Assembly: GCA_035402805.1 (NCBI GenBank)
Contig: DAONDY010000001.1
Location: forward strand, 253,672 to 317,671
DNA from: Candidatus Woesebacteria bacterium
Lineage (GTDB): Bacteria; Patescibacteriota; Microgenomatia; UBA12405
Length of the DNA stretch: 64,000 nucleotides
Direction of reading: 5' to 3'
Shown: positions 32,479 through 47,302 of the stretch, piece after piece
Layout of the letters: every line of letters begins with the position of its first letter
How positions within the stretch are numbered: position 1 is the stretch's first letter
Program-made: the position numbers and the translations under genes
The notes under the pieces: model-generated
Database searches by the model: none
What the model was told of the DNA's origin: nothing
Seen by the model: the letters and a program-made list of their open reading frames with translations, nothing else

Positions 32479-34128
32479 GTGATAAATCAAAGATCTAAAA
32501 TATTATCTATTGCCTTAACTTTTTGCTTCATCTTAGTTTCATCGCGTCTTTTTTATTGGCAAATAATAAAAGGACCAGAGCTAAGGGAAAAAGCTCAAAA
32601 CCAAGCTTATAAACTAGAAAAAATAATACCAGAACGAGGGAAAATATATTCATCAGATAATTTTCCCTTGGTTTTAAACCAAACCACCTATCAATTATCA
32701 ATTTATAAACCAAATCTTAAAGACAGCCTAGACGAAGTCATCGATAAAATAGAGCAAAATTATCCTAACTTTAAACTTGAAAATAATATTTCCATTGATA
32801 AATTTAAAAACAATCCAAATCAAAAATGGATTACTTTTAACTCGTTTTTTAGTGATAGCCAAAAAAAACAACTAGAAATCCCTGGGCTTGAATTTCAAAA
32901 AATAGCCAAAAGATATTATCCAGAAAATTTAATGGCCAAGGATATTCTCGGAATAATAAGTAAAGATTATCAAGGATCACCAGTTGGTTATGGTGGATTA
33001 GAAGCTTTTTATCAAAAACAGCTAAAAGGAAAAACTGGGTTCGTTTGGGCCCCACAAGATGCCACTGGCAAAACCATTTTAAACAAAAAAAGTTGGAGCT
33101 CTGAATCAATAAATGGTAGAGATATTTTTACTTCTATTAATCGAAGTGCTCAATTTTATGTTGAAAAACTATTACAAGAGGGTATAGATAAATATTCCGC
33201 CGACTCTGGTTCTATCACCGTTATGGAACCAAAAACCGGAGCCATTTTAGCTATGGCCTCTTTAACCAGTACTAGCTCCGCTACTATCAGTTCGATTAGA
33301 AATCCGGCTATTTCCGACCTTTTTGAACCAGGATCAATTTTTAAACCCATTGTTGTGTCTATGGCTCTAGATAATAAATCTATAAATACAGATTTTATCT
33401 GTAGCCAATGTCATCAACCTAACGTTATTGGTAAGTACTTTATCAGCAATTGGGATAATGAATTTCATCCTAACTCCAGTCTTCAAGATATTATTAAAAA
33501 TTCGGATAATATCGGTATGAGTTATATAATCGAAAAACTCGGAAAAGATGATTTTTTGAAATACTGTCAGAAATTAGGACTCAACCAAAAAACTGGAATT
33601 GATCTTCAAGGAGAAGCTAAACCGTCTTTAAAAACTGAATGGCCTGAAATCGACCTAGCTACCGCTTCTTTTGGTCAAGGAATTGTTGTTACTCAAATCA
33701 ACATGCTTCAAGCTTTTAATACCATTGCTAATAATGGTGTCTTGGTTAAACCAAAAGTTGCTAATTATTTTACAGAAGGGGATAAAATCATAAAAAATAA
33801 GAACCAGACCGAGACAAAAGTATTTAGCGATCAAACTATCACCGATGTTAAGGCAATTCTAAAATATGCTGTTGAAAATGGTGTTGTTTCACAATTTAAG
33901 CCAAAGAAACTAGAAGTTTGTGCTAAAAGCGGTACCGCTCAAATAGCTATTGGAGGAAAATACACCGATTCAAAAACTATTGCTTCATATATAGGATTTT
34001 CGCCTTGTGACAATCCTAAATTCACCATGATTGTCACCATTAATAATCCCAAAACTTCTCCCTGGGGATCAAGTACCGCCGCTCCAATTTGGTACGAATT
34101 AGCGTCAAAACTAAACGATTTGTTATAA
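32479..34128 (+). CDS. ftsI: peptidoglycan D,D-transpeptidase (class B PBP, FtsI-like)
   Basis: N-terminal TM, SxxK-region (SIFKPI), KSGTAQ (KTG-type) motif, dcw context. Confidence 0.85.
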   Translation: MINQRSKILSIALTFCFILVSSRLFYWQIIKGPELREKAQNQAYKLEKIIPERGKIYSSDNFPLVLNQTTYQLSIYKPNLKDSLDEVIDKIEQNYPNFKLENNISIDKFKNNPNQKWITFNSFFSDSQKKQLEIPGLEFQKIAKRYYPENLMAKDILGIISKDYQGSPVGYGGLEAFYQKQLKGKTGFVWAPQDATGKTILNKKSWSSESINGRDIFTSINRSAQFYVEKLLQEGIDKYSADSGSITVMEPKTGAILAMASLTSTSSATISSIRNPAISDLFEPGSIFKPIVVSMALDNKSINTDFICSQCHQPNVIGKYFISNWDNEFHPNSSLQDIIKNSDNIGMSYIIEKLGKDDFLKYCQKLGLNQKTGIDLQGEAKPSLKTEWPEIDLATASFGQGIVVTQINMLQAFNTIANNGVLVKPKVANYFTEGDKIIKNKNQTETKVFSDQTITDVKAILKYAVENGVVSQFKPKKLEVCAKSGTAQIAIGGKYTDSKTIASYIGFSPCDNPKFTMIVTINNPKTSPWGSSTAAPIWYELASKLNDLL

Positions 34129-34139
34129 TTAAACACCAA

Positions 34140-35456
34140 ATGATTCAAAAACTTAAAAATATTTTTATTCATCTACCAAAAAGTATTTTTTACAATTTCT
34201 ATTACGGTTTTCCCTCAAAAAAACTAACTCTCATCGGAGTTACTGGTACAGATGGCAAAACCACCACCTGCACCCTAATTCATGAAATTTTAAAACAATC
34301 TGGCCTAAAAACAGGATTAATTACCACTATTGGAGCCAAAGTTGAAGACCGGGAAATCGATACTGGTTTTCACACTACTACACCAGATCCATCTTTACTT
34401 CAAAAAATTTTGGCCGAAATGGTTAAGGCCGGTATGACTCATGTTGTTTGTGAAGTTACTTCTCACGCTCTTGATCAATATCGTTTTTTAGGTTGTCAAT
34501 TTGAAATTTCTGGAATTACTAATACCTCTCACGAACATCTTGATTATCATAAAAATTTAACCAATTACATCAACACTAAAGCCAAGTTATTTTCTATATC
34601 AAAAAGTGCTGTTTTAAATAAAGACGATCAATCCTTTGAAATTATTAAAAAACAAATTAAAACTCCCTTTAAAACATTTAGTATTAAAGAAAATTCCGAT
34701 TATCAAGCCAAAAAAATTAAGTTAGATCAAAATCTACTTAACTTTGAAGTCAACGATCAAAAATTTACTACCGATAGTAATTATGAATATCAAATTTACA
34801 ATATTCTTTTAGCTTTAGCCATTTGCCAAAAATTAAAAATTGATTTAAGTCTTGTTCAGAAAACCATAGAACATTTTCCTGAAACTAAAGGTCGTCGAGA
34901 AGAAATTCCAAATGATTTTAAATTTAAAACTATTATCGATTTTGCCCACACTCCTTTTGCTTTGGAAGCCTCACTTTCATCACTTAGAAAAATAGATAAA
35001 GGTAATCTTATTGTTATTTTTGGTGCCACCGGAGGACGAGACCAAAGCAAACGCCCTGAGATGGGTAAAGTTGTTTCTAAACAAGCTAATATTGCTTTTA
35101 TTACCGCCGACGATACTCGAAACGAAAAAATAGAAGATATTAATAAACAAATAATTAGCGGAATTGACCCCAAAAAATCAGAGTTGATCGATTATCAGGA
35201 AATAAAAAACAAAAAACAAATTCAAAATATAATTGAATTATCAAAACAAAAATTTATTTATTTTAATATTCCTAATCGGCAAGACGCTTTCAATCTAGCT
35301 ATAAAATTTGCCCAACCACAGGACATTGTTATTGCCTGCGGTAAAGGTCACGAAACCACTATTCTTCACGGCCGCACTGAATATCCCTGGTCAGAAGCCG
35401 AAGCTTTCAGAACCGCTTTTAGACTTAAAAAATTAAATAAAAATGGCTCAATTTAA
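34140..35456 (+). CDS. murE: Mur ligase, MurE-like (UDP-MurNAc-L-Ala-D-Glu:diamino acid ligase)
   Basis: GVTGTDGKTTT P-loop and Mur-ligase middle/C domains. Start moved to ATG 34140 just after the ftsI stop. Position after ftsI. Confidence 0.75.
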   Translation: MIQKLKNIFIHLPKSIFYNFYYGFPSKKLTLIGVTGTDGKTTTCTLIHEILKQSGLKTGLITTIGAKVEDREIDTGFHTTTPDPSLLQKILAEMVKAGMTHVVCEVTSHALDQYRFLGCQFEISGITNTSHEHLDYHKNLTNYINTKAKLFSISKSAVLNKDDQSFEIIKKQIKTPFKTFSIKENSDYQAKKIKLDQNLLNFEVNDQKFTTDSNYEYQIYNILLALAICQKLKIDLSLVQKTIEHFPETKGRREEIPNDFKFKTIIDFAHTPFALEASLSSLRKIDKGNLIVIFGATGGRDQSKRPEMGKVVSKQANIAFITADDTRNEKIEDINKQIISGIDPKKSELIDYQEIKNKKQIQNIIELSKQKFIYFNIPNRQDAFNLAIKFAQPQDIVIACGKGHETTILHGRTEYPWSEAEAFRTAFRLKKLNKNGSI

Positions 35457-36036
35457 CTTAAAAAATACCAAAAGTATTGAAGAAAATTATCAAAGCGGAC
35501 TTTTACCTCAAAGGAATGATAAAAATTCCTTTTACTTTCAAACGAGCAGTCGTTCTAATTTAGAAAATTTTAATCTTAGTTCAGAAAATCGCCGAATATT
35601 ACGAAAAACCGAAAATTTCACTTTCGAGAAAAAAAGCCTTAATGATTTTGACTATAATTTTAAAGTTCAAAAAGACATAGCTGGTTGGATAAAAAATCTA
35701 TCTTGGAATTTTCCCGTTAGCTCCGTCAAAAATGTTTTTAAAAATCATATTTTTAATTATCTATACATTTGGAAAGACGAAAAAAACGAAATTATTGCCT
35801 ATTCTTTGTGTTATTTTTCAAAAAATATCAGTCACATTGCTTATGTTTTTTATAATCCTGCCCTTGCTAATAGCAATTTACCAATTAGGCTAGTACTTCA
35901 AGCTATTATTGATAGTCAAAAATTAGGTTTAAAATATTGTTATCTCGGTCGTTTCTCCTTAGAATCCGGTTATTATAAAAGAAATATGCCTGGTTTTGAA
36001 TATTTTAAAGATAATAATTGGGTTACACTTAATTAA
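35443..36036 (+). CDS. GNAT-fold aminoacyl-tRNA-dependent transferase-like protein (ATE/Bpt C-terminal-like or Fem-like)
   Basis: C-terminal YCYLGRFSLESGYYKRNMPGFEYF...W resembles the ATE_C/Bpt LGYW..S.KM.YK..F.P.E pattern. Embedded between two Mur ligases. Confidence 0.4.
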   Translation: MAQFNLKNTKSIEENYQSGLLPQRNDKNSFYFQTSSRSNLENFNLSSENRRILRKTENFTFEKKSLNDFDYNFKVQKDIAGWIKNLSWNFPVSSVKNVFKNHIFNYLYIWKDEKNEIIAYSLCYFSKNISHIAYVFYNPALANSNLPIRLVLQAIIDSQKLGLKYCYLGRFSLESGYYKRNMPGFEYFKDNNWVTLN

Positions 36037-36039
36037 TAT

Positions 36040-37413
36040 ATGCACATCCATATTCTAGGCATCGCTGGTACGATGACCGCTCCTTTAGCCGTCGCCTTAA
36101 AAAAGGAAGGACACTTAATCACTGGTTCTGACCAAGAAAAAATTTATCCGCCTGTCAGTACTATTTTAAAAAAATCTAATATTAAAATTAATTCTCAAAA
36201 AATTGATTCTACTATCGATTTGGCCATAATTGGCGGATCATACTCCAGTTTTCAAAAAACCAAAGAAGAATTTGAGCAAATTAAAAAACTTAAAATTAAA
36301 TATATATCCGCAAGTGAGTTTATAGCTCAAAAATTAATTAAAGAAAATTCTGTTTTAATTGCCGGAACATATGGAAAAACTACCATCACTTCCTTAGTTT
36401 CCTGGATCTTTTGTCAATCAAATTTTAATCCAAATTATATGTTTGGAGGCGAAGCCATTAATCACTTTCCCTCTACCAATATTTCTTCGTCAAATTGGTC
36501 TGTAGTTGAAGCCGATGAATCAATTCACGGACTCGACAACCAAGCTAAATTTTTGTATTACCCAGTTAAGTTCTTAACATTAACTAGTGCTGATTGGGAA
36601 CACAAAGACTCATATTCCACAGAAATTGCCAATTTTAATGCTTTTAAAAAACTCATAACCAATGTTCCAGAAAATGGATTTTTACTCGTCAATTCTAAAG
36701 GTTTTCAAACTAAAGAGTTAAGCCTTTATTCTAAAACAAGAATAATCACATATAACTCATCAAATTCGGACTACTATCTAAAACATATAAAAATAAAAAA
36801 GAGTTATTCTGTTTTAAATATCAGAACCCCCAGAAATATTATTGAAATCAAAACTAAATTAATAGGTCAATTTAATTTTGAAAATATTCTAGCAGCAGTC
36901 GCTCTAACCGACAGTCTCAATATTAATCAAACTATTATCAAAAAGGCCATTTTCAATTTCAAGGGAATTAAACGCCGAATTGAAAAAATTTATGACCAAA
37001 ATAAAATTACCATCTTTGATGATTTTGCCCAATCTTCAAATAGAATTAAATCTACATTAGAAAGTATTAAATCTCATTTTCCCAAAAGAAATATAAAAAT
37101 TCTTTATCAACCTCATGCTTCCTTTATTCAATATAAAGAAAGCTTAAAAGATTTTAAAAACGCTTTCTCCTTAGCTTCTGAAATTGTTTTATCAAAAATA
37201 AATTACAACCATAACATTGATAAAAACAACCGCACTACTGCCAAAGATTTTAGAGATATTATCGGTTCAAAATTAGTTTATATACCGATAGACGAAGACA
37301 TTATTAATTTTTATAAACAAAACCTCAAATCTGGCGATATTTTAATAAATATGAGTTCTGGCGGTCTTAATGGAAACAACATTGTCAAATCTGTTATTAA
37401 TTATTTAAAATAA
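36040..37413 (+). CDS. Mur ligase of the MurC/Mpl subfamily (Mpl-like N-terminus)
   Basis: MHIHILGIAGTMTAPLA...GSD...YPPVST (Mpl/MurC-type N-domain) and a GTYGKTT P-loop. Confidence 0.75.
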   Translation: MHIHILGIAGTMTAPLAVALKKEGHLITGSDQEKIYPPVSTILKKSNIKINSQKIDSTIDLAIIGGSYSSFQKTKEEFEQIKKLKIKYISASEFIAQKLIKENSVLIAGTYGKTTITSLVSWIFCQSNFNPNYMFGGEAINHFPSTNISSSNWSVVEADESIHGLDNQAKFLYYPVKFLTLTSADWEHKDSYSTEIANFNAFKKLITNVPENGFLLVNSKGFQTKELSLYSKTRIITYNSSNSDYYLKHIKIKKSYSVLNIRTPRNIIEIKTKLIGQFNFENILAAVALTDSLNINQTIIKKAIFNFKGIKRRIEKIYDQNKITIFDDFAQSSNRIKSTLESIKSHFPKRNIKILYQPHASFIQYKESLKDFKNAFSLASEIVLSKINYNHNIDKNNRTTAKDFRDIIGSKLVYIPIDEDIINFYKQNLKSGDILINMSSGGLNGNNIVKSVINYLK

Positions 37414-37416
37414 TCT

Positions 37417-38745
37417 ATGTCTAGATATATCATAACCGGTGGTAATCAACTTAAAGGCGAAGTCTCTATTAGAGGCGCTAAAAACGCTAGTTTTAAACAA
37501 ATAATTGCCTCAATGTTGACTAATAAAACTGTTTCATTAAATAATATTCCTCAAATATCTGATGTAAAAATAACTTTAAGCATTGCTAAAAGTCTTGGTT
37601 GCCAAGCAAAACAAATAGGTGAACATTGCCTTGAATTAACTACTCCAAAAATAAATAAATCAATTGTTCCCAGTGGTACTGGAGAAAAATCTCGAACCTC
37701 TTTTATGTTTGTAGCTCCGCTTCTGGCCAGAACTGGTACTGCCACAATTCCATCACCAGGAGGGGATAAATTAGGCAACCGACCTCTCGATCGTCTTTTC
37801 GATTGTTTTTCTCAAATGAATATAAAAACTTCTGAAAAAGAAAACGAAATTACTTTCAACACCGACAAAATCATTGGGACTCATTACACTTTTACTAAAC
37901 CGTCACATACTGTTACTGAAGTAATTATTATGACTGCTGTTTTAGCCCAAGGTGAAACAATTATTGATAATGCTGCTCTAGAACCAGAAATTGATGATCT
38001 TATTTTAATGTTAAATGAAATGGGAGCCAAAATTGAAAGAGATCCATCCAATAACAAAAGAATTACCATCCAAGGCGTTTCTTTATTAAACGGAACTGAA
38101 CACAGCGTAATTTGCGATCGAAACGAAATTGTCACTTTCGCTTGTGCCGCTTTAGCCACCAAAGGTTCTATCTGCATTCTTAGAATAAAACCAGACGTAG
38201 TCAAAACATTTTTAGACGTTATAAAAAAAATGGGGGCCGAAGTTAAAGTTGGTAATGATGAAATCTGTATTCAATGGGTTAAACCATTAACTAATATAGA
38301 TATCGAAACTGGTCCAGAACCTATGTTTATGACCGATTGGCAAGCCATCTTTACTGTTCTATTGACCCAAACTGTAGGGTGTAGTTCACTTATTGAAACA
38401 GTTTTTCCAAATAGATTTCAACATATTGAAAATCTCAAAAAAATGGGTGGAAAATTCAATTTCTTTAATCCACCTGTTAAAGATCCAGATAATTATTATC
38501 AATTCAATAAAGAAAGTGATAATCCTCAATACTTCCACGGTGTAAAAATATATGGACCAACCATGCTTAAACCAGCCAACTTTGTTATTAGTGACCTTCG
38601 AGCCGGAGCTTCAGCTACTGTTGCCGCTCTAACAGCTCAAGGAAAATCAATTATTGATGGAGTTGAATACATAGAAAGGGGATATGAAAAATTAGCTGAA
38701 CGTCTTTCTTCTTTAGGTGCTAACATAGAATATATAAAAACGTAA
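37417..38745 (+). CDS. murA: UDP-N-acetylglucosamine 1-carboxyvinyltransferase
   Basis: IRGAKNASFKQIIASMLT N-terminus and two-domain EPSP-like architecture. 442 aa. Confidence 0.9.
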   Translation: MSRYIITGGNQLKGEVSIRGAKNASFKQIIASMLTNKTVSLNNIPQISDVKITLSIAKSLGCQAKQIGEHCLELTTPKINKSIVPSGTGEKSRTSFMFVAPLLARTGTATIPSPGGDKLGNRPLDRLFDCFSQMNIKTSEKENEITFNTDKIIGTHYTFTKPSHTVTEVIIMTAVLAQGETIIDNAALEPEIDDLILMLNEMGAKIERDPSNNKRITIQGVSLLNGTEHSVICDRNEIVTFACAALATKGSICILRIKPDVVKTFLDVIKKMGAEVKVGNDEICIQWVKPLTNIDIETGPEPMFMTDWQAIFTVLLTQTVGCSSLIETVFPNRFQHIENLKKMGGKFNFFNPPVKDPDNYYQFNKESDNPQYFHGVKIYGPTMLKPANFVISDLRAGASATVAALTAQGKSIIDGVEYIERGYEKLAERLSSLGANIEYIKT

Positions 38746-38749
38746 TTTT

Positions 38750-39784
38750 ATGATGCATTTATATCTTGGTTTATTACTTTTTTCTTTTTTAATCACTAGT
38801 ATTTTAGTTGTTCCTTTTATTAATCTTCTCTATAAACTTAAGTTTCAAAGACAAATTCAAAAAACTACCGACTTCCAAAATAAAAGAACCACTATTTTTG
38901 ATAAATTTCACAACCAAAAATCTGGCACTCCTGTTGGTGGCGGTCTTCTGATAATAGTCTCAGTTTGTTTAATGTTTATAATTCTTTTCCCCATACTTAA
39001 ATTCTCCAGAATCTTTATTTCCTCCAACTACAATATAGAGAACGAATTATTTATTCTCTTTTTTACCTTTATAAGCTTTGGATTATTAGGACTTTATGAC
39101 GACATCTATAAATTTTTCGGATTTAAAAAAACTGGCTTTTTCGGCTTGAAGATGGTCCACAAATTTATATTACAAATATTGATCTCTTTAGTTATTTCTT
39201 TAATGATTTATTTTAAACTTAAGATCGAATTCATTTATATACCCTTTTTAGGTCCCATTCACTTAGGATTTTTCTTTGTTCCTATTTCAACTGTTATTAT
39301 CACCGGTTTTGCTAATTTCTTTAATATAAGTGACGGCCTAGACGGGCTTTCTTGTGGATTATTAATGATTGCCTTATTTTCATTTTGGATTTTAGCCAGC
39401 AACTCTTTAGACACCGTCATTTCTTCTTTTCTGGCACTTTGGATTGGTGCTCTAATCGCTTTCTTGTATTTTAATGTTTATCCAGCCAGAATCTGGCTTG
39501 GCGATGTTGGCTCACTTTCCTTTGGAGCCACTTTTGCGGTCATTGCTCTTTTATTAGGAAAAATAGTCCCCTTAATAATTGTTGGCTCACCCTTCATTAT
39601 TGAAGGTATGTCCAGTGCTATTCAGCTAATTAGTAAAAAATATTTTAAAAAGAAAATTTTTCCAGCCGCTCCGCTTCATTTAACCCTTCAAAGTATTGGT
39701 TGGGAAGAACCAAAAATAGTTATGCGTGCTTGGTTGGCTGGAATTATATTAGCAATCTTTGGATTATGGCTGGGAATAAATTAG
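38750..39784 (+). CDS. mraY: phospho-N-acetylmuramoyl-pentapeptide transferase
   Basis: DD.YKF, NFFNISDGLDGL and C-terminal HH-like motifs. 10 TM helices. Confidence 0.9.
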   Translation: MMHLYLGLLLFSFLITSILVVPFINLLYKLKFQRQIQKTTDFQNKRTTIFDKFHNQKSGTPVGGGLLIIVSVCLMFIILFPILKFSRIFISSNYNIENELFILFFTFISFGLLGLYDDIYKFFGFKKTGFFGLKMVHKFILQILISLVISLMIYFKLKIEFIYIPFLGPIHLGFFFVPISTVIITGFANFFNISDGLDGLSCGLLMIALFSFWILASNSLDTVISSFLALWIGALIAFLYFNVYPARIWLGDVGSLSFGATFAVIALLLGKIVPLIIVGSPFIIEGMSSAIQLISKKYFKKKIFPAAPLHLTLQSIGWEEPKIVMRAWLAGIILAIFGLWLGIN

Positions 39785-40320
39785 ATTTATTAAAACAGGA
39801 GATCCAATATTATATTGGCTTACCTTATAGTAAAAACATCCTTAAGAACGGAAAAATAATTAAAGAACAATTTCTTGGGGGTAAAGGTAATTATCGTCAA
39901 ATTGCAACCGAAACCATTAGACTTGCTCAACAACAAAAAATAGATTTACTTAAACTAAGTAACCAAGAGTTCTATAATTTTCAAAAGAAAAATCATCTTG
40001 GAATAGATTGTTCTGGACTTGCCTGTCAGTTATTAAACTTTTATTTTCAAGCTGATTTAAATCCGCGAAAAACTTCAGCCGACATGTTAACATCTGCTCC
40101 AATTTCCCAAAAAATAACCGATTTGGATAAAATCCAAACAGGTGATTTAGTTCGCCAAAACAACGGCCATCATGTTTTATTTGTCATCGAAAAACAAAAC
40201 AACACCATTTACTACGTTGACAGTTCACTTAAAGGCAGGGGAGTAAAATATGGTAAGTTTGATATTACCGATAAAAATTTTATTCACCAAGGTTTTTATC
40301 GATTACTTTTCCTCGATTAA
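39766..40320 (+). CDS. NlpC/P60 (C40) family cysteine peptidase-like protein
   Basis: HLGIDCSGLACQLL (catalytic Cys motif) and TGDLV....GHHVLFVI (His motif). Start chosen at ATG 39766, overlapping the mraY end by 19 nt. Confidence 0.45.
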   Translation: MAGNKLDLLKQEIQYYIGLPYSKNILKNGKIIKEQFLGGKGNYRQIATETIRLAQQQKIDLLKLSNQEFYNFQKKNHLGIDCSGLACQLLNFYFQADLNPRKTSADMLTSAPISQKITDLDKIQTGDLVRQNNGHHVLFVIEKQNNTIYYVDSSLKGRGVKYGKFDITDKNFIHQGFYRLLFLD

Positions 40321-40461
40321 TTCTCGATATTTTAACGGGTTTATAGACAAAATCTCAACTTCAGTTCCACATTCAGGACACTCGATAATATCTCCCACCA
40401 TAGTATTTTCTGTTATTTCAATTTCGGTTTGACAATCTGGACAAATAACTTTTTCGTTCAT
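40303..40461 (-). CDS. LysW-like zinc-ribbon small protein (52 aa, 2x CxxC)
   Basis: Translation MNEKVICPDCQTEIEITENTMVGDIIECPECGTEVEILSINPLKYRELIEEK follows the LysW/ArgW carrier pattern CPxC..E.......GE.IEC.ECG.E.E.....P. It lacks the canonical C-terminal EDWGE tail. Missed by the 60-aa ORF cutoff. Confidence 0.45.
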   Translation of the reverse strand: MNEKVICPDCQTEIEITENTMVGDIIECPECGTEVEILSINPLKYRELIEEK

Positions 40462-40501
40462 GTTTTATTAAATTAATAACTAGTATAATTAAACTAATTA
40501 T

Positions 40502-41257
40502 ATGGCAAACACTCCTTTAATCAAATTAGAAGATGTTTATTTCAAAAGAGAAGATCTAAATGAAACTGGATCAGCTAAGGATCGGGCTATTATTTTTCAA
40601 ATAGAAAATCTCAAAAAACAAGGATTTAATAGTGCTGTAATTTCTAGCACTGGCAATGCTGCCATTTCTGCTTGCCATTTTTGTTTTTTGAACAAAATTA
40701 ACCTAACCGTTTTTTTATCACCCAAAGTAAACAAAAATAAATTAAATTTAATCAAAAACTGCCAAATAGTTTTCTCTAATAAAGCCATTAGCGATGCTAT
40801 TAAATTTGCTAAAAAAAATAACGCTTATCTTTTACGTCAATCAACTGACCCCAGTGCTTTAATTGGTTATCAAGAAATTGGCAAAGAATTAACCAAAGCT
40901 ACCAGCATTTTTGTTCCAGTTGGCAGTGGCACCACTCTTTTAGGAATCTCCCAAGCGGTTAATCCTTCAGTTAAAATGTTTGCCATTAAACCAGAAAACA
41001 CCTTATTAACTGATGCTCTCACTGTCAAATACCAACCCCTAAAAAACAGAGTAGCTTCTACTGTCAAAAATTCTGAAGGGTCAGAACTAATTATTCAAAA
41101 TAAAGAAATCTTGGAAGCTCAAAAAATACTAGAATCAAATAATATAAAGACCTCTCCCGAGGGAGCGTTGGCTTTTGCTGGATTTAAAAAAGCTAAAAAT
41201 CAAAAATTAGATATCGGTAGTTATCCAGTTGTAATCTTCACCGGATGTCAAAGATAA
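40502..41257 (+). CDS. short PLP-dependent enzyme of fold-type II (threonine-synthase/TrpB-like)
   Basis: TPLIKL...FKREDLNETGSAKDR (PLP-Lys motif), ISSTGNAAISA, PVGSGTTLLGI. Only 251 aa, lacking much of a ThrC C-terminal region. Confidence 0.55.
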   Translation: MANTPLIKLEDVYFKREDLNETGSAKDRAIIFQIENLKKQGFNSAVISSTGNAAISACHFCFLNKINLTVFLSPKVNKNKLNLIKNCQIVFSNKAISDAIKFAKKNNAYLLRQSTDPSALIGYQEIGKELTKATSIFVPVGSGTTLLGISQAVNPSVKMFAIKPENTLLTDALTVKYQPLKNRVASTVKNSEGSELIIQNKEILEAQKILESNNIKTSPEGALAFAGFKKAKNQKLDIGSYPVVIFTGCQR

Positions 41258-42360
41258 ATTTAGAAACTATCATTAATGATTCTCACTATTCCTTTTATTT
41301 TTTAGTGGTCGATAAGTTTCTAGACATAAATCTACCTCAAATCAAAAATTTTCACAAAATTTATCTTTCGGATTATTCTTCAATTAAAGTAAAAAATAGC
41401 GGAAAGCTTCTTAGTAATCAGAAAGTAATCGATTACATAAAATCGACATCAGGTTCTCTAATTCCCGCTATTATCCCTTTTAAGCCATCTGCTAAAATTG
41501 ATTTTTTATGTAAAAAATATAATTGGATAAATGTCAGTAATCCAGCCCCAATTAACCGATTTTTAGAAGATAAAATCAAGTTTGCCAAACTTTGTCAAAA
41601 ATATAAATTACCAATGATTCCTTTTGTCATTGGTAATTTTAATCAAAAAAACTTTTTAAAATATCAAAAATTATATGGCCCAAAATTGGTCTTACAAACT
41701 CATTTTGGTTGGGCTGGAAACAGCACTTTTTCTGCTTCGTCTTGGAACGAGATTAAAGATAAAATTTCTCCAGAAGTTATTACTAAATATAGCCCTTTTA
41801 TAAATTCTTCTTATTCTTTATTAAATAATTGTTGCCTTACTAAATTTGGTCTAATCCAAAGTCCTCCAGCTCTTCAATATACCGGAGTTAAACCATTTAC
41901 TCAAAACCCATTTACAACTGTTGGTCGACAATGGCCATCTTTTGCCCCATTAAAAATAATTAAAAAAATTAACACCATAACCAAAGATTTTTCCAAAATT
42001 TTAGAAGAAATCGGCTATAAAGGTTTTTTTGGACTTGATTTTTTAATCGATCAAGATAAAGTATTTTTATTAGAATGCAACCCTCGATTAACTGCCTCTT
42101 TTGATTTCTATACTAGACTCGAGTTAGGTCAAAAGATAACCCCTCTTTTTTATTTCCATCTGGCCGAATTTTTAAAACTTGATTATCAAATTGACATTAA
42201 ATTAGAACAAAAACGATTTGACAATAAAAAAATTATTGGCTCTGAATTGACTCCAAAAAATAAAAATAATAATTCTTGTCAGAAGCTAAATTTTTTTTAT
42301 CCTTTATCTAAAACCACTAATCCAATTTCTATCCCAAAAGATTTAAATGAAAAAAACTAA
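41245..42360 (+). CDS. ATP-grasp carboxylate-amine ligase (CPSase-type ATP-grasp), at the syntenic ddl position
   Basis: EDKIKFAKLCQKYKLPMIPF pre-ATP-grasp motif and GFFGLDFLIDQDKVFLLECNPRLTAS core. The E.NPR.S signature differs from Ddl's E.NT.PG.T. Confidence 0.55.
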   Translation: MSKINLETIINDSHYSFYFLVVDKFLDINLPQIKNFHKIYLSDYSSIKVKNSGKLLSNQKVIDYIKSTSGSLIPAIIPFKPSAKIDFLCKKYNWINVSNPAPINRFLEDKIKFAKLCQKYKLPMIPFVIGNFNQKNFLKYQKLYGPKLVLQTHFGWAGNSTFSASSWNEIKDKISPEVITKYSPFINSSYSLLNNCCLTKFGLIQSPPALQYTGVKPFTQNPFTTVGRQWPSFAPLKIIKKINTITKDFSKILEEIGYKGFFGLDFLIDQDKVFLLECNPRLTASFDFYTRLELGQKITPLFYFHLAEFLKLDYQIDIKLEQKRFDNKKIIGSELTPKNKNNNSCQKLNFFYPLSKTTNPISIPKDLNEKN

Positions 42361-43525
42361 ATCTCCTTTATTATTTTTAGTTTTTAGTCTAATTTTTATT
42401 GGCCTTATTTTTATTTCCATCTCTTCATTAAGTGAAGCCAATTCTACTATTGGTGACAAATTTTTCTTTATTAAAAAACAAGCCTTTTGGCTTATTTTAG
42501 GTATAATTTGTTTTTTTATAACTTCAAAAATTAAAATTGAAACAATCAAAAAATTTTCTTTTCTTTTTTATGCAGCCTCTATTTTATGTTTAGTTTTAGT
42601 TTTGATTCCTGGTTTTGGCAACGAAGCTCTTGGAGCCAAACGCTGGCTAAATTTAGGGTTTACTAGTATTCAACCATCAGAAATACTAAAACTTAGTTCA
42701 ATTATTTATTTTGCTTATCTATTTTCTAAAGAAGAAAAACGTCATATAAAAAACCTGATTTTTTATTTAGGAATTCCTTTTATTCTTATCATCATTGAAC
42801 CTAACTTGAGCACTGCTATTTTAATCTCTGCCATTGTTGGTTCTATTTATTATCTTTCTGGTGGCGATGTTATGCCTTTATTCGGAATTATCAGTCTTAT
42901 TTTAATTTTAAGTGTGCCATTAATCTTTTTTTCACCCTATAGATCGGCTAGATTAAAAACATTTTTAGAACCTCAACAAAATCAAGAAACATCTTCCTAT
43001 CATAGCAACCAAATAATACTAACTCTTTCTTCTGGGGGTCTCTTGGGAAAGGGTTTTGCTAATTCAGATCAAAAATATAAATTTCTACCTAAAATATCAA
43101 CCGATTCAATTTTGGCAGTTATTGGCGAAGAGGTTGGTTTTGTTGGTATTTTTGTAGTTTTATTAATTTATCTTTCTTTAATAAATTACCTGTTAAAATT
43201 TTCCAAAACTATAGATGACCAATTTCAAAGCCTTTTGGTTTCCGGCACTGCCTGTTGGATCGCCTACCAAAGTTTGATAAATATTTCTGCTATCGCTGCT
43301 CTTATACCCCTAACAGGAGTTCCTCTTCCTTTTATTTCCTATGGTGGATCATCACTATTAACCCTTTTTGTCGCCATTGGTTTAGTCAGAAATGTCGAAA
43401 AAAACCAAAAAATGCTGTTATACTCAAAGAGTGACCACAGTCAAACAAAAAAAAACGATCATTATCACCGGGACCCATCTCACCCCAGCCTTAGAACTCA
43501 TTCGACAACTAAAATCAGATCCTGA
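42347..43525 (+). CDS. ftsW: SEDS-family peptidoglycan glycosyltransferase (FtsW-like)
   Basis: 10 TM helices, periplasmic loop motifs SDSILAVIGEEVGFVG and PLPFISYGGSS. The 3' end overlaps the murG ORF. Confidence 0.8.
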   Translation: MKKTKSPLLFLVFSLIFIGLIFISISSLSEANSTIGDKFFFIKKQAFWLILGIICFFITSKIKIETIKKFSFLFYAASILCLVLVLIPGFGNEALGAKRWLNLGFTSIQPSEILKLSSIIYFAYLFSKEEKRHIKNLIFYLGIPFILIIIEPNLSTAILISAIVGSIYYLSGGDVMPLFGIISLILILSVPLIFFSPYRSARLKTFLEPQQNQETSSYHSNQIILTLSSGGLLGKGFANSDQKYKFLPKISTDSILAVIGEEVGFVGIFVVLLIYLSLINYLLKFSKTIDDQFQSLLVSGTACWIAYQSLINISAIAALIPLTGVPLPFISYGGSSLLTLFVAIGLVRNVEKNQKMLLYSKSDHSQTKKNDHYHRDPSHPSLRTHSTTKIRS

Positions 43526-44531
43526 AATTGATTGGCAAATAAATTATATCGGCCGAAAAAACAATTCTAGTGTTGACAATACTCCATCTATAGAATCCAA
43601 TATAATCCCTAAAATGGGAATAAATTTCTATTCAATTAATTGCGGAAAATTAGACCGCCGATGGATTCCAAATACCATTAGAGGTCTTCCCCAAACATTT
43701 AAATCCGTTTTTCAATCCTTTAAATTAATCAAAAAAATTAAACCAGACGTTATTATTTCTTTTGGTGGCTATGTTTCCGTTCCCATTATTATCGGTGGAT
43801 TTTTTAAAAAAATTCCTTCAATCACCCACGAACAAACCCTTACTAATAGTTTAACTACCAAAATTAATAGCCTTTTTGTCAATATAGTTGCCCTTTCTTT
43901 TAATAATCAAAAACAAAAAAATAGCCTCCCTAAACATAAAATAGTTGTTACTGGAAATCTTTTACGACAGGAACTTTTTAATCCTAAAAAATCAAAAATA
44001 GGGGATCAGATTGCTAAAATAAAAACAAAAATTATTTTTATTACCGCTGGTAACCAAGGTTCTCATGTTATTAATCTAATAATTGAACAATTATTACCTG
44101 AATTAAAAAATTATTTTATAATCCACCAAACTGGGAAAAACGATTTTGATAAATTTAATAAATTATCTAAAAAATATCCTAATTATCGAGTTTTCGACTA
44201 TATCGAAGCCAATGATATTGGTCATATTTTTAATAAATCAGAACTCATTATCAGTCGCTCCGGTGCTAACACCAGTCAAGAAATAGTCGCTTTAAACAAA
44301 AAATCAATTTTAATTCCCTTAAAAATCAGTCAACAAAATGAACAATTTTTAAACGCCACCTGGGTTAAAGAAAAAATCCCCGAATTTACCGAAATAATAG
44401 AAGAGAAAAATCTAAATAATATTAGCCTTTTAGGAGTTATAAAAAAGTTAATTTCTCTTAAAGTCAAAAATAATATTACCAAAGAAACTAACAATCCAAA
44501 ACTTTTAAGATTGATTCATGAAATTATTTAA
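43392..44531 (+). CDS. murG: UDP-GlcNAc:lipid I N-acetylglucosaminyltransferase (MurG-like, GT28)
   Basis: Two-domain GT-B, FITAGNQGSHVIN donor motif. The N-terminal G-loop is divergent (TGTHLTPA instead of GGTGGH). The true start may be downstream (GTG ~43431), which would reduce the overlap with ftsW. Confidence 0.7.
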   Translation: MSKKTKKCCYTQRVTTVKQKKTIIITGTHLTPALELIRQLKSDPEIDWQINYIGRKNNSSVDNTPSIESNIIPKMGINFYSINCGKLDRRWIPNTIRGLPQTFKSVFQSFKLIKKIKPDVIISFGGYVSVPIIIGGFFKKIPSITHEQTLTNSLTTKINSLFVNIVALSFNNQKQKNSLPKHKIVVTGNLLRQELFNPKKSKIGDQIAKIKTKIIFITAGNQGSHVINLIIEQLLPELKNYFIIHQTGKNDFDKFNKLSKKYPNYRVFDYIEANDIGHIFNKSELIISRSGANTSQEIVALNKKSILIPLKISQQNEQFLNATWVKEKIPEFTEIIEEKNLNNISLLGVIKKLISLKVKNNITKETNNPKLLRLIHEII

Positions 44532-44898
44532 AATTTCTTTATTCATTATTTTTTTTTCCCTATTATCTTTTTCTACCTATTCATTGGTTAATTTTTCTAA
44601 TAATAAAATTAACCCCGCTTCCAGTAAAAATAATTTTTATCTCCAAATAGAACATGCCTTAAAAACTAGCCAACTTGTAACCACTAAAAACACCATTAGG
44701 GATTATCAAAATCAGTTTGAATTCTATATAATTAATGAAAGTAATCCAATTAAAGTTAATTTATCAACTCAAAAAAATCCTTATTGGCAAATTACTTCTT
44801 TACAAGAAATTTTAAAAACAGCTAAAATTAATAATAAACAACTTCAATTAGTTGATCTAAGTATTAATCATCCTTATGCAACATTCAAAAATAATTAA
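44518..44898 (+). CDS. small FtsQ/DivIB-position membrane protein (minimal FtsQ-like?)
   Basis: 126 aa with an N-terminal TM helix, located between murG and ftsA where ftsQ normally lies. No clear POTRA signature. Confidence 0.3.
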   Translation: MKLFKISLFIIFFSLLSFSTYSLVNFSNNKINPASSKNNFYLQIEHALKTSQLVTTKNTIRDYQNQFEFYIINESNPIKVNLSTQKNPYWQITSLQEILKTAKINNKQLQLVDLSINHPYATFKNN

Positions 44899-46123
44899 TG
44901 TAATCGATATCGGTACCTCAAAAATTACTACTCTTGTTGGTCAATATTTTGAAGATGAAGATAAATTTAACATTGTTGCTGTTTCTTCGATTCCATCCTT
45001 AGGTTTTAGAAAAGGACAAATAATCAACCTAGAGCAGGCCTCGCATACTATCACTCAAAGCATAGAATCTGCTGAAAGAATGGCTGGTTTTCAAATAAAT
45101 AGTGCTCATATTTCTATTTCTGCTCCTCATATTGAATCAATTAATTCCCACGGTGTTGTTGCTATTAGTAATCCCAATGGTGAAATTGATCTTAATGACA
45201 TAAACCGTGTTACCGAAGCTGCTAAAGCTATTTCTTTACCAACCGGTAAAGAAATAATTCACATTATTCAAAGAAAATTTACTGTTGACGGTCAAGAAGG
45301 GGTCATTGATCCGGTCGGAATGAACGGTATCAGGCTTGAGGTTGAAGCCCATTTAGTTTTGGCATCAAGCCCGGCCTTAAAAAATCTCAAGAAATGTCTT
45401 GAAGATATCGGTATTAAGATAGAGTCTTTGACTTACGCTGGACTAAGCACTGCTACTGCGGCTTTAACTGATACTGAAAAAGAACTCGGTGTTGCTTTGG
45501 TTGATATTGGTGGCAGTATTACCAACATTACTATTTTTTCAGAAGGTTCACCTGTATTTTCCTCTGTAATTCCAGTTGGAGCTAATAATGTCACCAATGA
45601 CATCGCTATCGGTCTTCGATTTTCCATTGAAGATGCCGAAAAAATAAAATTAAAATTAACTAAATTAGCTGAAACTAAAAAATTTGAAGATGAAGTTGAA
45701 CTCTCTCATTTTGATATTCATTCCGATGATAAGAAAAAAATCTCCCTTCAAATGGCAATTAACGGTATTATTAAACCTCGATTAGAGGAAATTTTTAGTT
45801 TAATTTATTCCCAAATTGAGACCAGCGGTTTCAGTCAAACAATTCCTGCTGGTATCGTTTTAACTGGCGGGGGAGCCATGACTGTTAACGCCAAAGAAAT
45901 TTGCAATAAAATAATTCCTCTGCCATTAAGAATTGCCGATCCTCCCAAAGTCGGAGGTGTAGTTGATGATATTATTAATCCGGCTTATACTAGCACCATT
46001 GGTCTCTTAATCCATAATAAAAACACTAAAAAGAATAGTGGGTCAAATATTAAGGCTCCTAAAGTTTCTATGGGTGGATTTATTGGCAAGTTAAAAAAGA
46101 TTCTAGAACCACTTTTACCCTAA
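44876..46123 (+). CDS. ftsA: cell division protein FtsA
   Basis: Actin-fold motifs (IDIGTSKI, DIGGSITNITIF, LTGGGAM), directly upstream of ftsZ. Confidence 0.9.
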   Translation: MQHSKIINVIDIGTSKITTLVGQYFEDEDKFNIVAVSSIPSLGFRKGQIINLEQASHTITQSIESAERMAGFQINSAHISISAPHIESINSHGVVAISNPNGEIDLNDINRVTEAAKAISLPTGKEIIHIIQRKFTVDGQEGVIDPVGMNGIRLEVEAHLVLASSPALKNLKKCLEDIGIKIESLTYAGLSTATAALTDTEKELGVALVDIGGSITNITIFSEGSPVFSSVIPVGANNVTNDIAIGLRFSIEDAEKIKLKLTKLAETKKFEDEVELSHFDIHSDDKKKISLQMAINGIIKPRLEEIFSLIYSQIETSGFSQTIPAGIVLTGGGAMTVNAKEICNKIIPLPLRIADPPKVGGVVDDIINPAYTSTIGLLIHNKNTKKNSGSNIKAPKVSMGGFIGKLKKILEPLLP

Positions 46124-46126
46124 AAT

Positions 46127-47302
46127 ATGGGATTAATCAAAACTCTTACTGGACAATTTGCCAAAATAAAAGTCATCGGAGTTGGTGGCGGTGGTAATAA
46201 TGCCATTAATTCAATGATCTCCGAAGATTCCATCAAGGGCGTCGATTTTATTTCTGTTAATACCGATTCTCAAGCTTTGTTAAATTCTTTGGCCTCAGTC
46301 AAAATTCAAATCGGTGAAAAATTAACTAAAGGTTTAGGAGCAGGTGGTAATCCTCAAATTGGCCAAAAGGCAGCAGAAGAATCCAAAGAAAGAATTAAAG
46401 AAGTGTTGGAAGGCACGGATATGGTTTTTATTACTGGTGGCATGGGAGGAGGCACTTGTACTGGTGCCGCTCCGCTTATTGCCCAAATCGCCAAAAAAGA
46501 GTTGGGGATTTTAACTATTGGTGTCGTCACTAAACCATTTTTATTTGAGGGCACTCGCCGCATGACTAATGCTGAAGAAGGAATTTCTCAACTAAGAGAA
46601 AATGTCGATACCTTAATTGTCATTCCTAATCAAAAAGTTATGGAAGTTGTCAACACTAAAGCCACCCTGCTTGAAGCTTTTAAAATTGCCGATTCTGTTT
46701 TAAGTAAGGGAACTAAAGCTATTGCTGATTTAATCACTGTCCCTGGTCTTATAAATCTTGATTTTGCTGATATTAAAACCGTCATGAGTAATGCTGGTTC
46801 TGCTCTTATGGGAGTAGGGGAATCCGAAGGTGAAAATAAAATTCAAAAAGCCGTTGAAGACGCCATTAATTCACCTCTTATTGAAGTCAATATTGAAGGT
46901 GCTAGGGGAGTTCTCATAAACGTTACTGGCGGACCAGATATTACTATGGCTGAAATTGAAGAAGCAGCTAAAGCTATAACCGAAAGAACCGCCCCCGACG
47001 CTAATATTATTTTTGGCGCTACTATCGATAATGATTTAAAAGGTAAAGTTAAAATAACTGTCATTGCTACTGGTTTTGATCCTAGTCGAGCTAATCTTTA
47101 TCAACATATTAAAAAACCTCAGCCAACTTTAATTAACCTGTCTAAAATAGAAGAAAATAAAAAACCCGAAAATAATCTTTCAAATCCAGCCGAACTTAAC
47201 GATAATCAGATAAAAGAATTTTTAGACAATAAAGAAGTTCCCGCTGGAATTGATATTGTCGACGAGTACGATATTCCCGCCTTTTTAAGAAAAAATAAAT
47301 AA
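46127..47302 (+). CDS. ftsZ: cell division GTPase FtsZ
   Basis: GVGGGGNNAIN, tubulin signature GGMGGGTCTGAAP, C-terminal DIPAFLRK tail. Confidence 0.95.
   Translation: MGLIKTLTGQFAKIKVIGVGGGGNNAINSMISEDSIKGVDFISVNTDSQALLNSLASVKIQIGEKLTKGLGAGGNPQIGQKAAEESKERIKEVLEGTDMVFITGGMGGGTCTGAAPLIAQIAKKELGILTIGVVTKPFLFEGTRRMTNAEEGISQLRENVDTLIVIPNQKVMEVVNTKATLLEAFKIADSVLSKGTKAIADLITVPGLINLDFADIKTVMSNAGSALMGVGESEGENKIQKAVEDAINSPLIEVNIEGARGVLINVTGGPDITMAEIEEAAKAITERTAPDANIIFGATIDNDLKGKVKITVIATGFDPSRANLYQHIKKPQPTLINLSKIEENKKPENNLSNPAELNDNQIKEFLDNKEVPAGIDIVDEYDIPAFLRKNK

Follow-up and report, generated by a model that had tools for sequence, protein, structure and literature searches.

What is a small zinc-ribbon protein, filed in databases under lysine biosynthesis, doing among the cell-wall genes of a Candidate Phyla Radiation (CPR) bacterium? 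The question is raised by a short gene in a 64,000-nucleotide stretch of Candidatus Woesebacteria bacterium DNA (GenBank assembly GCA_035402805.1, contig DAONDY010000001.1, positions 253,672 to 317,671), which we call the window. The gene lies on the minus strand at 40303..40461, runs from an ATG start to a TAA stop and encodes a protein of 52 amino acids (MNEKVICPDCQTEIEITENTMVGDIIECPECGTEVEILSINPLKYRELIEEK), here called the ribbon. Its closest neighbours encode an NlpC/P60-like protein, a pyridoxal 5'-phosphate (PLP) enzyme and an ATP-grasp enzyme. From its conservation, its neighbours and the end of its polypeptide chain we conclude with good confidence that the ribbon is a functional partner in a cell-wall-linked module and not a lysine-biosynthesis protein.

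A preliminary description of this DNA had proposed the open reading frame (ORF), and its coordinates, strand, start, stop and translation were reproduced, together with the two CxxC pairs (C7/C10 and C28/C31) and the EEK terminus that it had read in the translation. It had taken the gene to be unannotated, which it is not: the identical sequence stands in GenBank as HPT65967.1, adjoining HPT65966.1 on a 578,770-bp contig, under the name 'lysine biosynthesis protein LysW [Candidatus Woesebacteria bacterium]'. A word-indexed protein search returned 146 homologues of 50-59 amino acids at 60-92% identity; when 1.84 billion cluster representatives were searched exhaustively with a profile, 798 matched at E<=1e-3. 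At least 109 species encode a relative, as a scan with one genome per species showed. Across 76 unique DNA sequences (41 aligned codons), diversity at codon positions 1, 2 and 3 was 0.20, 0.08 and 0.51, with a pS of 0.78 and a pN of 0.136 (pN/pS 0.17). In the same sequences every synonymous combination of GAA/GAG and AAA/AAG is in use for the terminal E-E-K; selection, therefore, acts on the amino acids. The preliminary description had staked the gene on a LysW profile match and on conservation in relatives with third-position variation of the coding kind, and all of these were found. The ribbon ORF is a real gene under coding selection.

The assignment to LysW-like zinc ribbons was also borne out. 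Pfam family PF21344 (Zn_ribbon_LysW) matched the ribbon at 50 bits against a gathering cut-off of 27, with residues 6-47 lying on profile positions 2-43 of 46, and the same label is precomputed on all homologues from the word-indexed search. Among PDB sequences the ribbon comes closest to T. kodakarensis LysW (5k2m, E 1.3e-7) and then to that of T. thermophilus (3wwl); both alignments pass a conserved P-L motif and extend into the beginning of the tail. The four zinc-ligand cysteines, invariant in our alignments (A2 and A4), are encoded within 40369..40443 on the minus strand (C7 at 40441-40443, C10 at 40432-40434, C28 at 40378-40380 and C31 at 40369-40371). The protein is acidic, with 13 acidic and 4 basic residues and an isoelectric point (pI) of 4.07, and the partner enzymes have a pI above 9.4.

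The check with LysW hidden Markov models, which had been suggested together with that assignment, gave a divided answer. The Pfam model scored above its cut-off, but TIGR01206 (41.2 bits against 53.2) and NF041070 (39.5 against 75) stayed below theirs, and neither match extends to the model's tail, which argues that the ribbon has the LysW fold without being a LysW or ArgW orthologue. The hallmarks of LysW and ArgW are three or four zinc-binding cysteines and a C-terminal EDWGE, the terminal Glu of which carries the substrate on its gamma-carboxyl; an E54A mutant is auxotrophic, and the partner enzyme LysX/ArgX reads EDWGE through a GSWGR motif (PMC10433800). Among these hallmarks only the zinc-binding cysteines are found in the ribbon. 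Neither EDWGE nor GSWGR occurs in the six-frame translation of the window, no LysX-, LysZ-, LysY-, LysJ- or LysK-type gene is present among its annotated ORFs (unscanned ORFs are all shorter than 235 amino acids), and LysZ-, LysY-, LysJ- and LysK-type genes are likewise missing from the Pfam-labelled neighbourhoods of relatives.

These results bear directly on the database annotation, which would make the ribbon LysW, the alpha-aminoadipate or glutamate carrier of lysine or arginine biosynthesis. The names in GenBank and IMG and the Pfam LysW domain match speak for it; the scores below both NCBIfam cut-offs, the lack of EDWGE or any terminal Glu, the lack of a GSWGR-bearing LysX and of LysZ/Y/J/K in 64 kb, and a context that is invariably one of cell-wall genes speak against it. 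So does the host, which belongs to a lineage with minimal biosynthetic capacity, Shapirobacteria being among the metabolically sparsest CPR (PMC6744442). On the sequence evidence the annotation is all but excluded, and the database name of HPT65967.1 is probably wrong.

Other LysW-like proteins were also seen. Many proteins of 100-210 amino acids contain two or three tandem LysW-like ribbons with basic linkers and basic or W/D-rich tails (tandem or long-tail proteins are P0386, P0394, P0397, P0399-P0401, P0406, P0408-P0411 and others), and further single LysW-like ribbons have long acidic tails ending in W-containing motifs other than EDWGE.

If the ribbon is not LysW, is its end simply a LysW tail in decay? 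The preliminary description had pointed out that EEK departs from the canonical EDWGE, implying a degenerate tail. The departure is real, but the degeneration is not supported. The window protein ends in ...RELIEEK; its last three residues, E50-E51-K52, are encoded at 40306..40314 on the minus strand and are proposed to form its functional end. EEK ends 118 of 120 close-family sequences in the pattern ...PL(K/Q/E)Y(R/Q)EL(I/V)EEK, the two exceptions being longer read-through forms. We extended the survey to the top 150 representatives (50%-identity clusters) of the exhaustive profile search, 90 of which are short LysW-like proteins. Fifty of these end in Lys (40 of them in EEK) and 9 in WGE. 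In 36 divergent Lys-terminated sequences with a mean identity of 36%, conservation reaches 90% or more at the four Cys, the terminal E-E-K, two Pro, one Glu of the ribbon and the start Met, and nowhere else. The tail after the second CxxC is 21-22 residues long in 48 of the 50 Lys-terminated proteins, compared with 26 in 8 of the 9 that end in WGE. The residue before the terminal Lys is Glu in 46 of the 50 (otherwise Gln, Thr or Asp), and Glu stands at -3 in 43. Gene neighbours are unchanged in the variants ...EQK and ...VQK, which makes Lys more constant than Glu.

Thus, the terminus is conserved like the zinc ligands, at a fixed length, across very divergent relatives. The pattern argues that EEK is not a decayed LysW tail and that the C-terminal Lys is its constant feature, and it places the ribbon in what we read as a distinct, widespread LysW-like subfamily with a fixed-length acidic tail ending in E-E-K. 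The preliminary description was right to ask whether the ribbon is a diverged carrier or serves some other function.

What, then, do the neighbours say? The window holds a CPR (Shapirobacteria/Woesebacteria-labelled) division and cell-wall (dcw) cluster in the order MraW, penicillin-binding protein, MurE, a 197-aa protein, MurC, MurA, MraY, the 184-aa NlpC/P60-like protein, the ribbon on the opposite strand, the 251-aa PLP enzyme, the 371-aa ATP-grasp enzyme, FtsW, MurG, a 126-aa ORF, FtsA, FtsZ and IleS. MraY (38750..39784, plus) and FtsW (42347..43525, plus) mark the upstream and downstream boundaries of the module. The slot between mraY and ftsW is the usual position of murD, and in the window it is filled by the four-gene block. 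Neighbours had been accurately described before, including the 18-nt convergent overlap of the ribbon gene with the NlpC/P60-like gene, which ends at 40320, and the 40 bp to the divergent PLP-enzyme gene, which starts at 40502.

The same arrangement is found in related genomes. In a close set of 83 Shapirobacteria-type loci (L001-L083) the order MraY, 184-aa protein, ribbon, PLP enzyme, ATP-grasp and FtsW is invariant, the ribbon always lying on the strand opposite its partners. The PLP enzyme (Pfam PALP) is present in 82 of these loci, the ATP-grasp enzyme in 77 and the NlpC/P60-like protein in 80, each absence falling at a contig end. The ribbon is the best conserved of the four (60-92% identity), the PLP enzyme varying over 44-80%, the ATP-grasp enzyme over 42-84% and the NlpC/P60-like protein over 38-85%. 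Adjacency of the ribbon and NlpC/P60-like genes is not absolute, since an insertion in L077 (10160-11525) separates them with a 92-aa ORF and a 350-aa protein whose N-terminus has a hydrophobic segment. We ruled out a murD remnant in this enlarged gap, the insertion being unrelated.

In the 64-kb window we found no murD, murF, murB or ddl, the dcw cluster (32479-47302) holding murA, murC and murE. We do not claim that the module replaces murD in Shapirobacteria: both the loci and the window were scanned, and loss and relocation are indistinguishable there. Collinear clusters, 70-92% identical to Shapirobacteria dcw clusters, come from numerous metagenome-assembled genome records named 'uncultured Gammaproteobacteria bacterium' (L006, L008, L010-L012 and many others), a label that appears to be a placeholder or an error.

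Two further genes of the region deserve mention. The 197-aa protein between murE and murC (35443-36036, plus), whose position is kept in all 62 or more related loci that reach that far, is weakly similar, below threshold, to arginyl/leucyl-tRNA protein transferases (NF002343, E 4e-8); it might be a transferase of the tRNA-dependent, Fem-like kind with a peptidoglycan precursor as its substrate. Downstream of the dcw cluster, ileS is directly followed by a second gene of the SEDS family (FtsW/RodA; 50801-51796, plus).

In distant lineages the link to cell-wall genes recurs in another form. The PLP-enzyme gene, followed by that of the ATP-grasp enzyme, adjoins the ribbon gene in divergent orientation in 23 of 25 distant loci; in the close set the PLP-enzyme gene adjoins it in 82 of 83. 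Locus L085 reads MraY-PaaX-X-MurD-[ribbon]-PALP-ATPgrasp-FtsW-MurG-FtsQ-FtsA, its MurD scoring 260.7 bits with TIGR01087 against a cut-off of 212, and L088 and L089 read MraY-[ribbon]-PALP. A metagenome scan, for which the query was a tight clade of 10 Lys-terminated ribbons ('...PLEEEK'), added 13 loci that, like L084, show the order X-MurD-[ribbon]-PALP-ATPgrasp wherever the flank suffices. In L095 no MraY, FtsW, MurG, FtsA or FtsZ homologue lies within 10 kb on either side, and the neighbours are prfB, ftsE, ftsX, a PcsB-like M23 peptidase, PAP2 and GT4. The conserved core is therefore the ribbon with the PLP enzyme and the ATP-grasp enzyme, usually with the NlpC/P60-like gene and repeatedly set against murD. 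The module is portable, in a five-gene form with murD and the NlpC/P60-like gene, and not a mere passenger of the dcw cluster. Its linkage to murD and to the mraY-ftsW junction suggests that it serves peptidoglycan-precursor synthesis.

Such strict co-occurrence would be equally expected of an obligate subunit. The ribbon could be a non-covalent subunit, scaffold or pseudo-substrate of the ATP-grasp enzyme, the PLP enzyme or MurD, the enzymes acting on soluble precursors, for example as a D-amino-acid racemase with a side-chain ligase of the aspartate racemase/Aslfm kind. Cross-bridge D-amino-acid ligase systems come to mind when a dcw cluster holds an ATP-grasp enzyme together with a PLP enzyme related to racemases. 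The Glu-Glu-Lys-COOH end resembles the gamma-D-Glu-L-Lys end of the MurE product and might mimic it in an active site, and the opposite strand with a promoter-like site of its own would allow separate control of dosage. However, conservation of the three terminal residues and of the tail length equals that of the zinc site, as one would sooner expect of a reactive terminus than of a docking surface, and the only known role of the homologous LysW family is covalent carriage (PMC10433800). We consider a non-covalent role unlikely.

How is a gene expressed that faces away from its partners? The divergent spacer of 40 bp and the first codons of the PLP gene (40462..40524) contain back-to-back promoter-like elements. 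A candidate promoter for the ribbon gene, TTGATT-16-TATAAT, reads along the minus strand at 40524..40497, and a candidate plus-strand TATAAT for the PLP and ATP-grasp genes lies at 40484-40489, 12 nt before the PLP ATG. The match to the consensus covers 10 of 12 positions, but sites of this kind are no more numerous than in shuffled sequence, so the assignment stays at the level of consensus. The spacer motifs CATATAAT and TATACT/TATAAT are kept in close relatives. The short distance from TATAAT to the ATG suggests that the organism uses very short leaders or leaderless mRNAs. Shine-Dalgarno-like 4-mers at -22 to -4 precede just 3 of 43 gene starts in the window; their lack at the ribbon gene therefore says nothing, and we rejected the notion that a gene lacking one is untranslated. 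A 60-aa plus-strand ORF antisense to the ribbon gene (40250-40432) is very likely spurious, the reverse-complement frames averaging 0.6-2.4 stops per sequence in relatives.

Divergent orientation and a short shared spacer are typical of autoregulators, and the ribbon gives weak matches to TFIIB/Brz-type ribbons. It might on these grounds be a nucleic-acid-binding regulator of the PLP/ATP-grasp-ftsW operon or, given that formation of Lys-Glu omega-amides by ATP-grasp ligases is known, a graspetide-like peptide that the ATP-grasp enzyme cross-links between Lys and Glu. Its acidic composition and low pI argue strongly against binding to DNA or RNA, and the TFIIB/Brz matches lie below cut-off whereas the LysW match lies above. 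As to a graspetide, the ATP-grasp enzyme is not of the RimK-like graspetide type, and the locus shows neither a leader/core architecture nor genes for a protease or an exporter. A regulator or graspetide is thus very improbable.

If the ribbon works with its neighbours, the nature of the three enzymes should tell what is done. The PLP enzyme (40502..41257, plus, 251 amino acids), the divergent partner of the ribbon, is of fold type II and matches PALP at 119.8 bits. All equivalog models stay far below cut-off, including the best of those for threonine synthase (92 bits against 358). The Schiff-base lysine, K26 in TGSxKDR, the substrate loop SSTGNAA and the phosphate loop GSGxT are invariant in 74 homologues and also across lineages. 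With a cross-lineage profile, threonine synthase scored 82 bits, threonine/serine dehydratases 72-76, cysteine synthase and SbnA 65-67, and serine and aspartate racemases 55-62; the enzyme is threonine-synthase-like but a subfamily of its own, approximately equidistant from known groups.

We rejected the PLP enzyme as a threonine synthase on account of these equivalog scores and of a motif. The segment NSVNPYRLEGQ of B. subtilis threonine synthase (6cgq) aligns to QSTDPSALIGY, and the Arg of the motif N-S-x-N-P-x-R-x-E-G-Q, which we take to bind the phosphate of O-phosphohomoserine, is replaced by Ala in all 8 sequences of the cross-lineage alignment (A6), with one Asn changed to an invariant Asp. 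The PLP enzymes of the window and of locus L107 lack a segment of 13-16 residues (...HxPIAxxFDxxFxPE..., columns ~198-213 of A6) that other Shapirobacteria and all distant lineages possess, apparently through a loop deletion specific to the lineage and close to the C-terminal domain.

The ATP-grasp enzyme (41245..42360, plus, 371 amino acids) belongs to an uncharacterised 'PRK06524-like' clade. It scores 27 bits with ATP-grasp_3 and, sub-threshold, 107 bits with the PRK06524 'biotin carboxylase' model (cut-off 684), and it weakly matches MfnD, the tyramine-glutamate ligase, a gamma-glutamyl-amine ligase (E 3.5e-6). A phmmer search against PDB sequences returned no match, and the family profile found in the PDB only the ExNPR nucleotide-binding motif, in carbamoyl-phosphate synthetase, PurK and pyruvate carboxylase, so that the sequence offered no hint of the substrate. 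The AlphaFold2 model has a pLDDT of 92.5, and its nearest folds are biotin carboxylase, PurK and PurT (E 1e-16 to 1e-13, TM ~0.55-0.64), no LysX or RimK structure appearing among the top 50 matches. Biotin carboxylase, PurK and PurT deliver activated small acids to nitrogen nucleophiles. The glycine-rich loop GWAG(N/S/K)xT(F/Y) has a Trp that is invariant across lineages; the window enzyme reads FGWAGNS where LysX has GSWGR, and the loop Trp would make a curious parallel to the Trp of that motif.

With an activating enzyme and a fold-II PLP enzyme beside a small protein and a peptidase, sulfur-carrier chemistry comes to mind. The ATP-grasp enzyme might phosphorylate the alpha-carboxyl of Lys52 to yield a thiocarboxylate that would serve the PLP enzyme as nucleophile, the NlpC/P60 peptidase then freeing the product, in the manner of CysO/CysM/Mec+ or MetO/MetM, or the chain might be extended with amino acids as by RimK or Ddl. 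All four components (carrier, activating enzyme, fold-II PLP synthase and peptidase) have counterparts in the thiocarboxylate route, the near neighbours of the PLP enzyme include cysteine synthase, CysM and SbnA, and the tail has a fixed length. Known sulfur carriers such as ThiS, MoaD and CysO, however, have a beta-grasp fold and a C-terminal Gly-Gly and are activated by adenylation with no ATP-grasp enzyme; the ribbon is a zinc ribbon that ends in EEK. We saw no sulfur-transfer genes in the neighbourhoods examined, and the linkage to murD and the dcw cluster and the invariance of Lys specifically would go unexplained. Chemistry at the alpha-carboxylate is accordingly a distinctly improbable account.

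The third partner is the 184-aa NlpC/P60-like protein, a putative papain-fold enzyme (39766..40320, plus; GenBank HPT65966.1; P0241, 100% identity). Its mechanical ORF starts at 39700, 22 codons upstream of the true start at 39766, and overlaps the end of mraY with either start. Cys82 in GIDCSGL and G-H-H135/136 are invariant and kept in distant homologues, and no hydrophobic N-terminus is seen on the protein. An AlphaFold2 model with a pLDDT of 90 has MepS, CHAP endolysin domains and RipD as its top folds, all weak (E 3.5e-3, TM 0.4-0.48). We read it as a divergent, cytoplasmic NlpC/P60-type amidase. Enzymes of this family typically cleave gamma-D-glutamyl-diamino-acid bonds.

This specificity opens a further route, in which the ribbon would be a pro-carrier: the peptidase would remove Lys as a cap, the exposed Glu carboxyl would be ligated by the ATP-grasp enzyme to the amino group of a substrate (compare LysX with LysW, RimK with S6, and tubulin tyrosine ligase/vasohibin with alpha-tubulin), and the PLP enzyme would modify the latter. 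The linked NlpC/P60 family cuts between Glu and Lys or diaminopimelate, the LysW fold and acidic tail suit such a carrier (with the frequencies of Glu at -2 and -3 given above for the 50 Lys-terminated proteins), and removal of Lys would leave ...EE, as at the terminus of S6 or of LysW as defined in PMC10433800. Yet a cap should vary, and Lys is the most constant residue; ...ETK, ...EQK and ...VQK would expose no Glu, and two of these keep their neighbours. Moreover, a substrate held by its alpha-amino group cannot form the external aldimine of a fold-II PLP enzyme, the NlpC/P60-like gene is absent beside the trio of L091, and there is no GSWGR/LysX-type ligase. We judge a Lys-capped pro-carrier quite improbable.

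The explanation that we prefer, and hold tentatively at somewhat short of an even judgement, is that the ribbon is a LysW-fold, carrier-like partner of the PLP enzyme, the ATP-grasp enzyme and the amidase in CPR peptidoglycan-precursor synthesis. That it is a covalent carrier we regard as an even call. The partner enzymes look catalytically competent, with the PLP lysine and loops, the Cys and His of NlpC/P60, and the ExNPR motif and glycine-rich loop of the ATP-grasp enzyme in place. The acidic ribbon would dock on its basic partners as LysW does, offering its tail to their active sites. The tether would be the epsilon-amino group of the terminal Lys, with a polarity reversed relative to LysW; this step is possible but doubtful. 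The ATP-grasp enzyme would convert a carboxylate of some free amino acid into an acyl phosphate and join it to Lys52, the simplest guess being L-glutamate through its gamma-carboxyl.

The alpha-amino group of the tethered residue would then still be free. Fold-II PLP enzymes need a free alpha-amino group to form the external aldimine, and the PLP enzyme would epimerise the residue or modify it at the beta or gamma position; its near neighbours include serine and aspartate racemases. The NlpC/P60 amidase would release the product from Lys52, and D-glutamate or a position-2 analogue would be used by MurD. A product that is D-glutamate itself we think rather unlikely, and we give as little credence to the fullest version, a 'reverse-polarity LysW' that carries a carboxyl group and, driven by ATP, replaces glutamate racemase as the source of D-glutamate or of a non-canonical residue for position 2. 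We favour the Lys tether because it would explain at once why Lys and not Glu is invariant, why these three kinds of enzyme are present and why murD is linked; covalent loading, attachment atom, substrate and product are inferred by analogy.

Several observations weigh against this carrier explanation. The link to murD depends on lineage, no MurD-type ligase being found within +-10 kb in 66 Shapirobacteria-type loci. In L091, which reads MraY-[ribbon]-PALP-ATPgrasp-FtsW, the NlpC/P60-like gene is not beside the trio. L087, a 683-bp contig of 55% GC, has a 49-aa ribbon ending in ...FEEEEK downstream of a same-strand metallo-beta-lactamase-fold gene, with no PLP gene nearby, and the Lys-terminated class may have more than one gene context. 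Pfam NLPC_P60 scores the 184-aa protein at 19.5-19.9 bits, below its gathering cut-off of 23. NlpC/P60 enzymes normally cut gamma-D-Glu on the alpha-amino group of Lys or diaminopimelate, not on the epsilon-amine. In its loop the PLP enzyme has S-T-G-N, the threonine-synthase type, where serine racemases have S-S-G-N, and the sequence thus does not favour racemase chemistry. Docking in the manner of LysW would be an extrapolation, as the ATP-grasp enzyme is not LysX- or RimK-like, and the high pI of the partners, usual in AT-rich CPR proteomes, says little in favour of docking. The constant opposite-strand placement of the ribbon gene would also fit a regulatory role. The mechanism as a whole was drawn from gene linkage and family-level analogy.

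What is new here is a large sister class of LysW with a C-terminal Lys and a different enzyme set, found in the CPR dcw cluster or in a portable murD module. A literature search on LysW-like carriers, CPR peptidoglycan and D-glutamate gave no description of a Lys-tailed class. To our knowledge, LysW-type carriers, all of which use a C-terminal Glu, have been described only in the making of lysine and arginine by thermophiles and archaea and of a few natural products by actinobacteria. If the ribbon is a covalent carrier, carrier-protein metabolism would reach peptidoglycan-precursor synthesis, the attachment chemistry would be new, and the module could explain how minimal genomes are supplied with a D-amino acid or a non-canonical stem-peptide residue. 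As far as we know, the ultra-small CPR bacteria do not grow in culture on their own, and the Lys-tailed module offers a testable handle on their scarcely described cell-wall chemistry. There is also a practical side: the name 'lysine biosynthesis protein LysW' appears to be a systematic mis-annotation, found in hundreds of CPR genomes, and could wrongly imply lysine prototrophy.

How does the ribbon compare with known systems? The nearest are the LysW and ArgW amino-group carrier proteins of lysine, arginine and DADH-type products, which share with it the zinc-ribbon fold, a size of ~50-55 amino acids, the acidic character, a flexible tail after the P-L motif and genes for an ATP-grasp and a PLP enzyme nearby. 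In contrast to theirs, the tail of the ribbon is 5 residues shorter and ends in E-E-K instead of EDWGE; its ATP-grasp enzyme is biotin-carboxylase/PurK-like without GSWGR, not LysX/RimK-like; its PLP partner is of fold II, not a fold-I LysJ aminotransferase, and LysZ, LysY and LysK are absent; and its context is that of CPR murD and dcw genes, not of amino-acid or secondary-metabolite clusters. The CysO-CysM-Mec+ system (and the HcyS/MetO type) likewise encodes a small carrier, an activating enzyme, a fold-II PLP synthase and a peptidase together. In that system an amino acid is built on the carrier C-terminus and then cleaved off. Its carriers differ in being beta-grasp proteins with an adenylated Gly-Gly end, whereas the ribbon combines a zinc ribbon, a terminal Lys, an ATP-grasp enzyme and linkage to murD, with no sulfur-transfer genes.

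Single steps of the proposed mechanism have parallels of a looser kind. In tubulin tyrosination (TTL and vasohibin) and in RimK/S6, an ATP-grasp enzyme acts at an acidic ...E-E-X terminus, and vasohibin, a cysteine peptidase of the transglutaminase/papain fold, removes the terminal residue; these systems, unlike the module, tune protein function and do not act as metabolic carriers, have no PLP enzyme and are unrelated in sequence, which leaves an analogy of component types. We know of no precedent for the C-terminal Lys of a free-standing protein as the acceptor of an ATP-grasp enzyme. Acylation of a Lys epsilon-amine by an ATP-grasp enzyme is, however, seen in Aslfm, the D-aspartate ligase of Enterococcus, and in PylC of pyrrolysine synthesis, and Aslfm, moreover, acts in peptidoglycan-precursor synthesis paired with a racemase; a relationship in sequence to Aslfm or PylC was not found, no search aimed at one having been made. 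Biotin carboxylase, the nearest ATP-grasp fold, offers the remaining likeness, as its group rides on the Lys of a small carrier protein.

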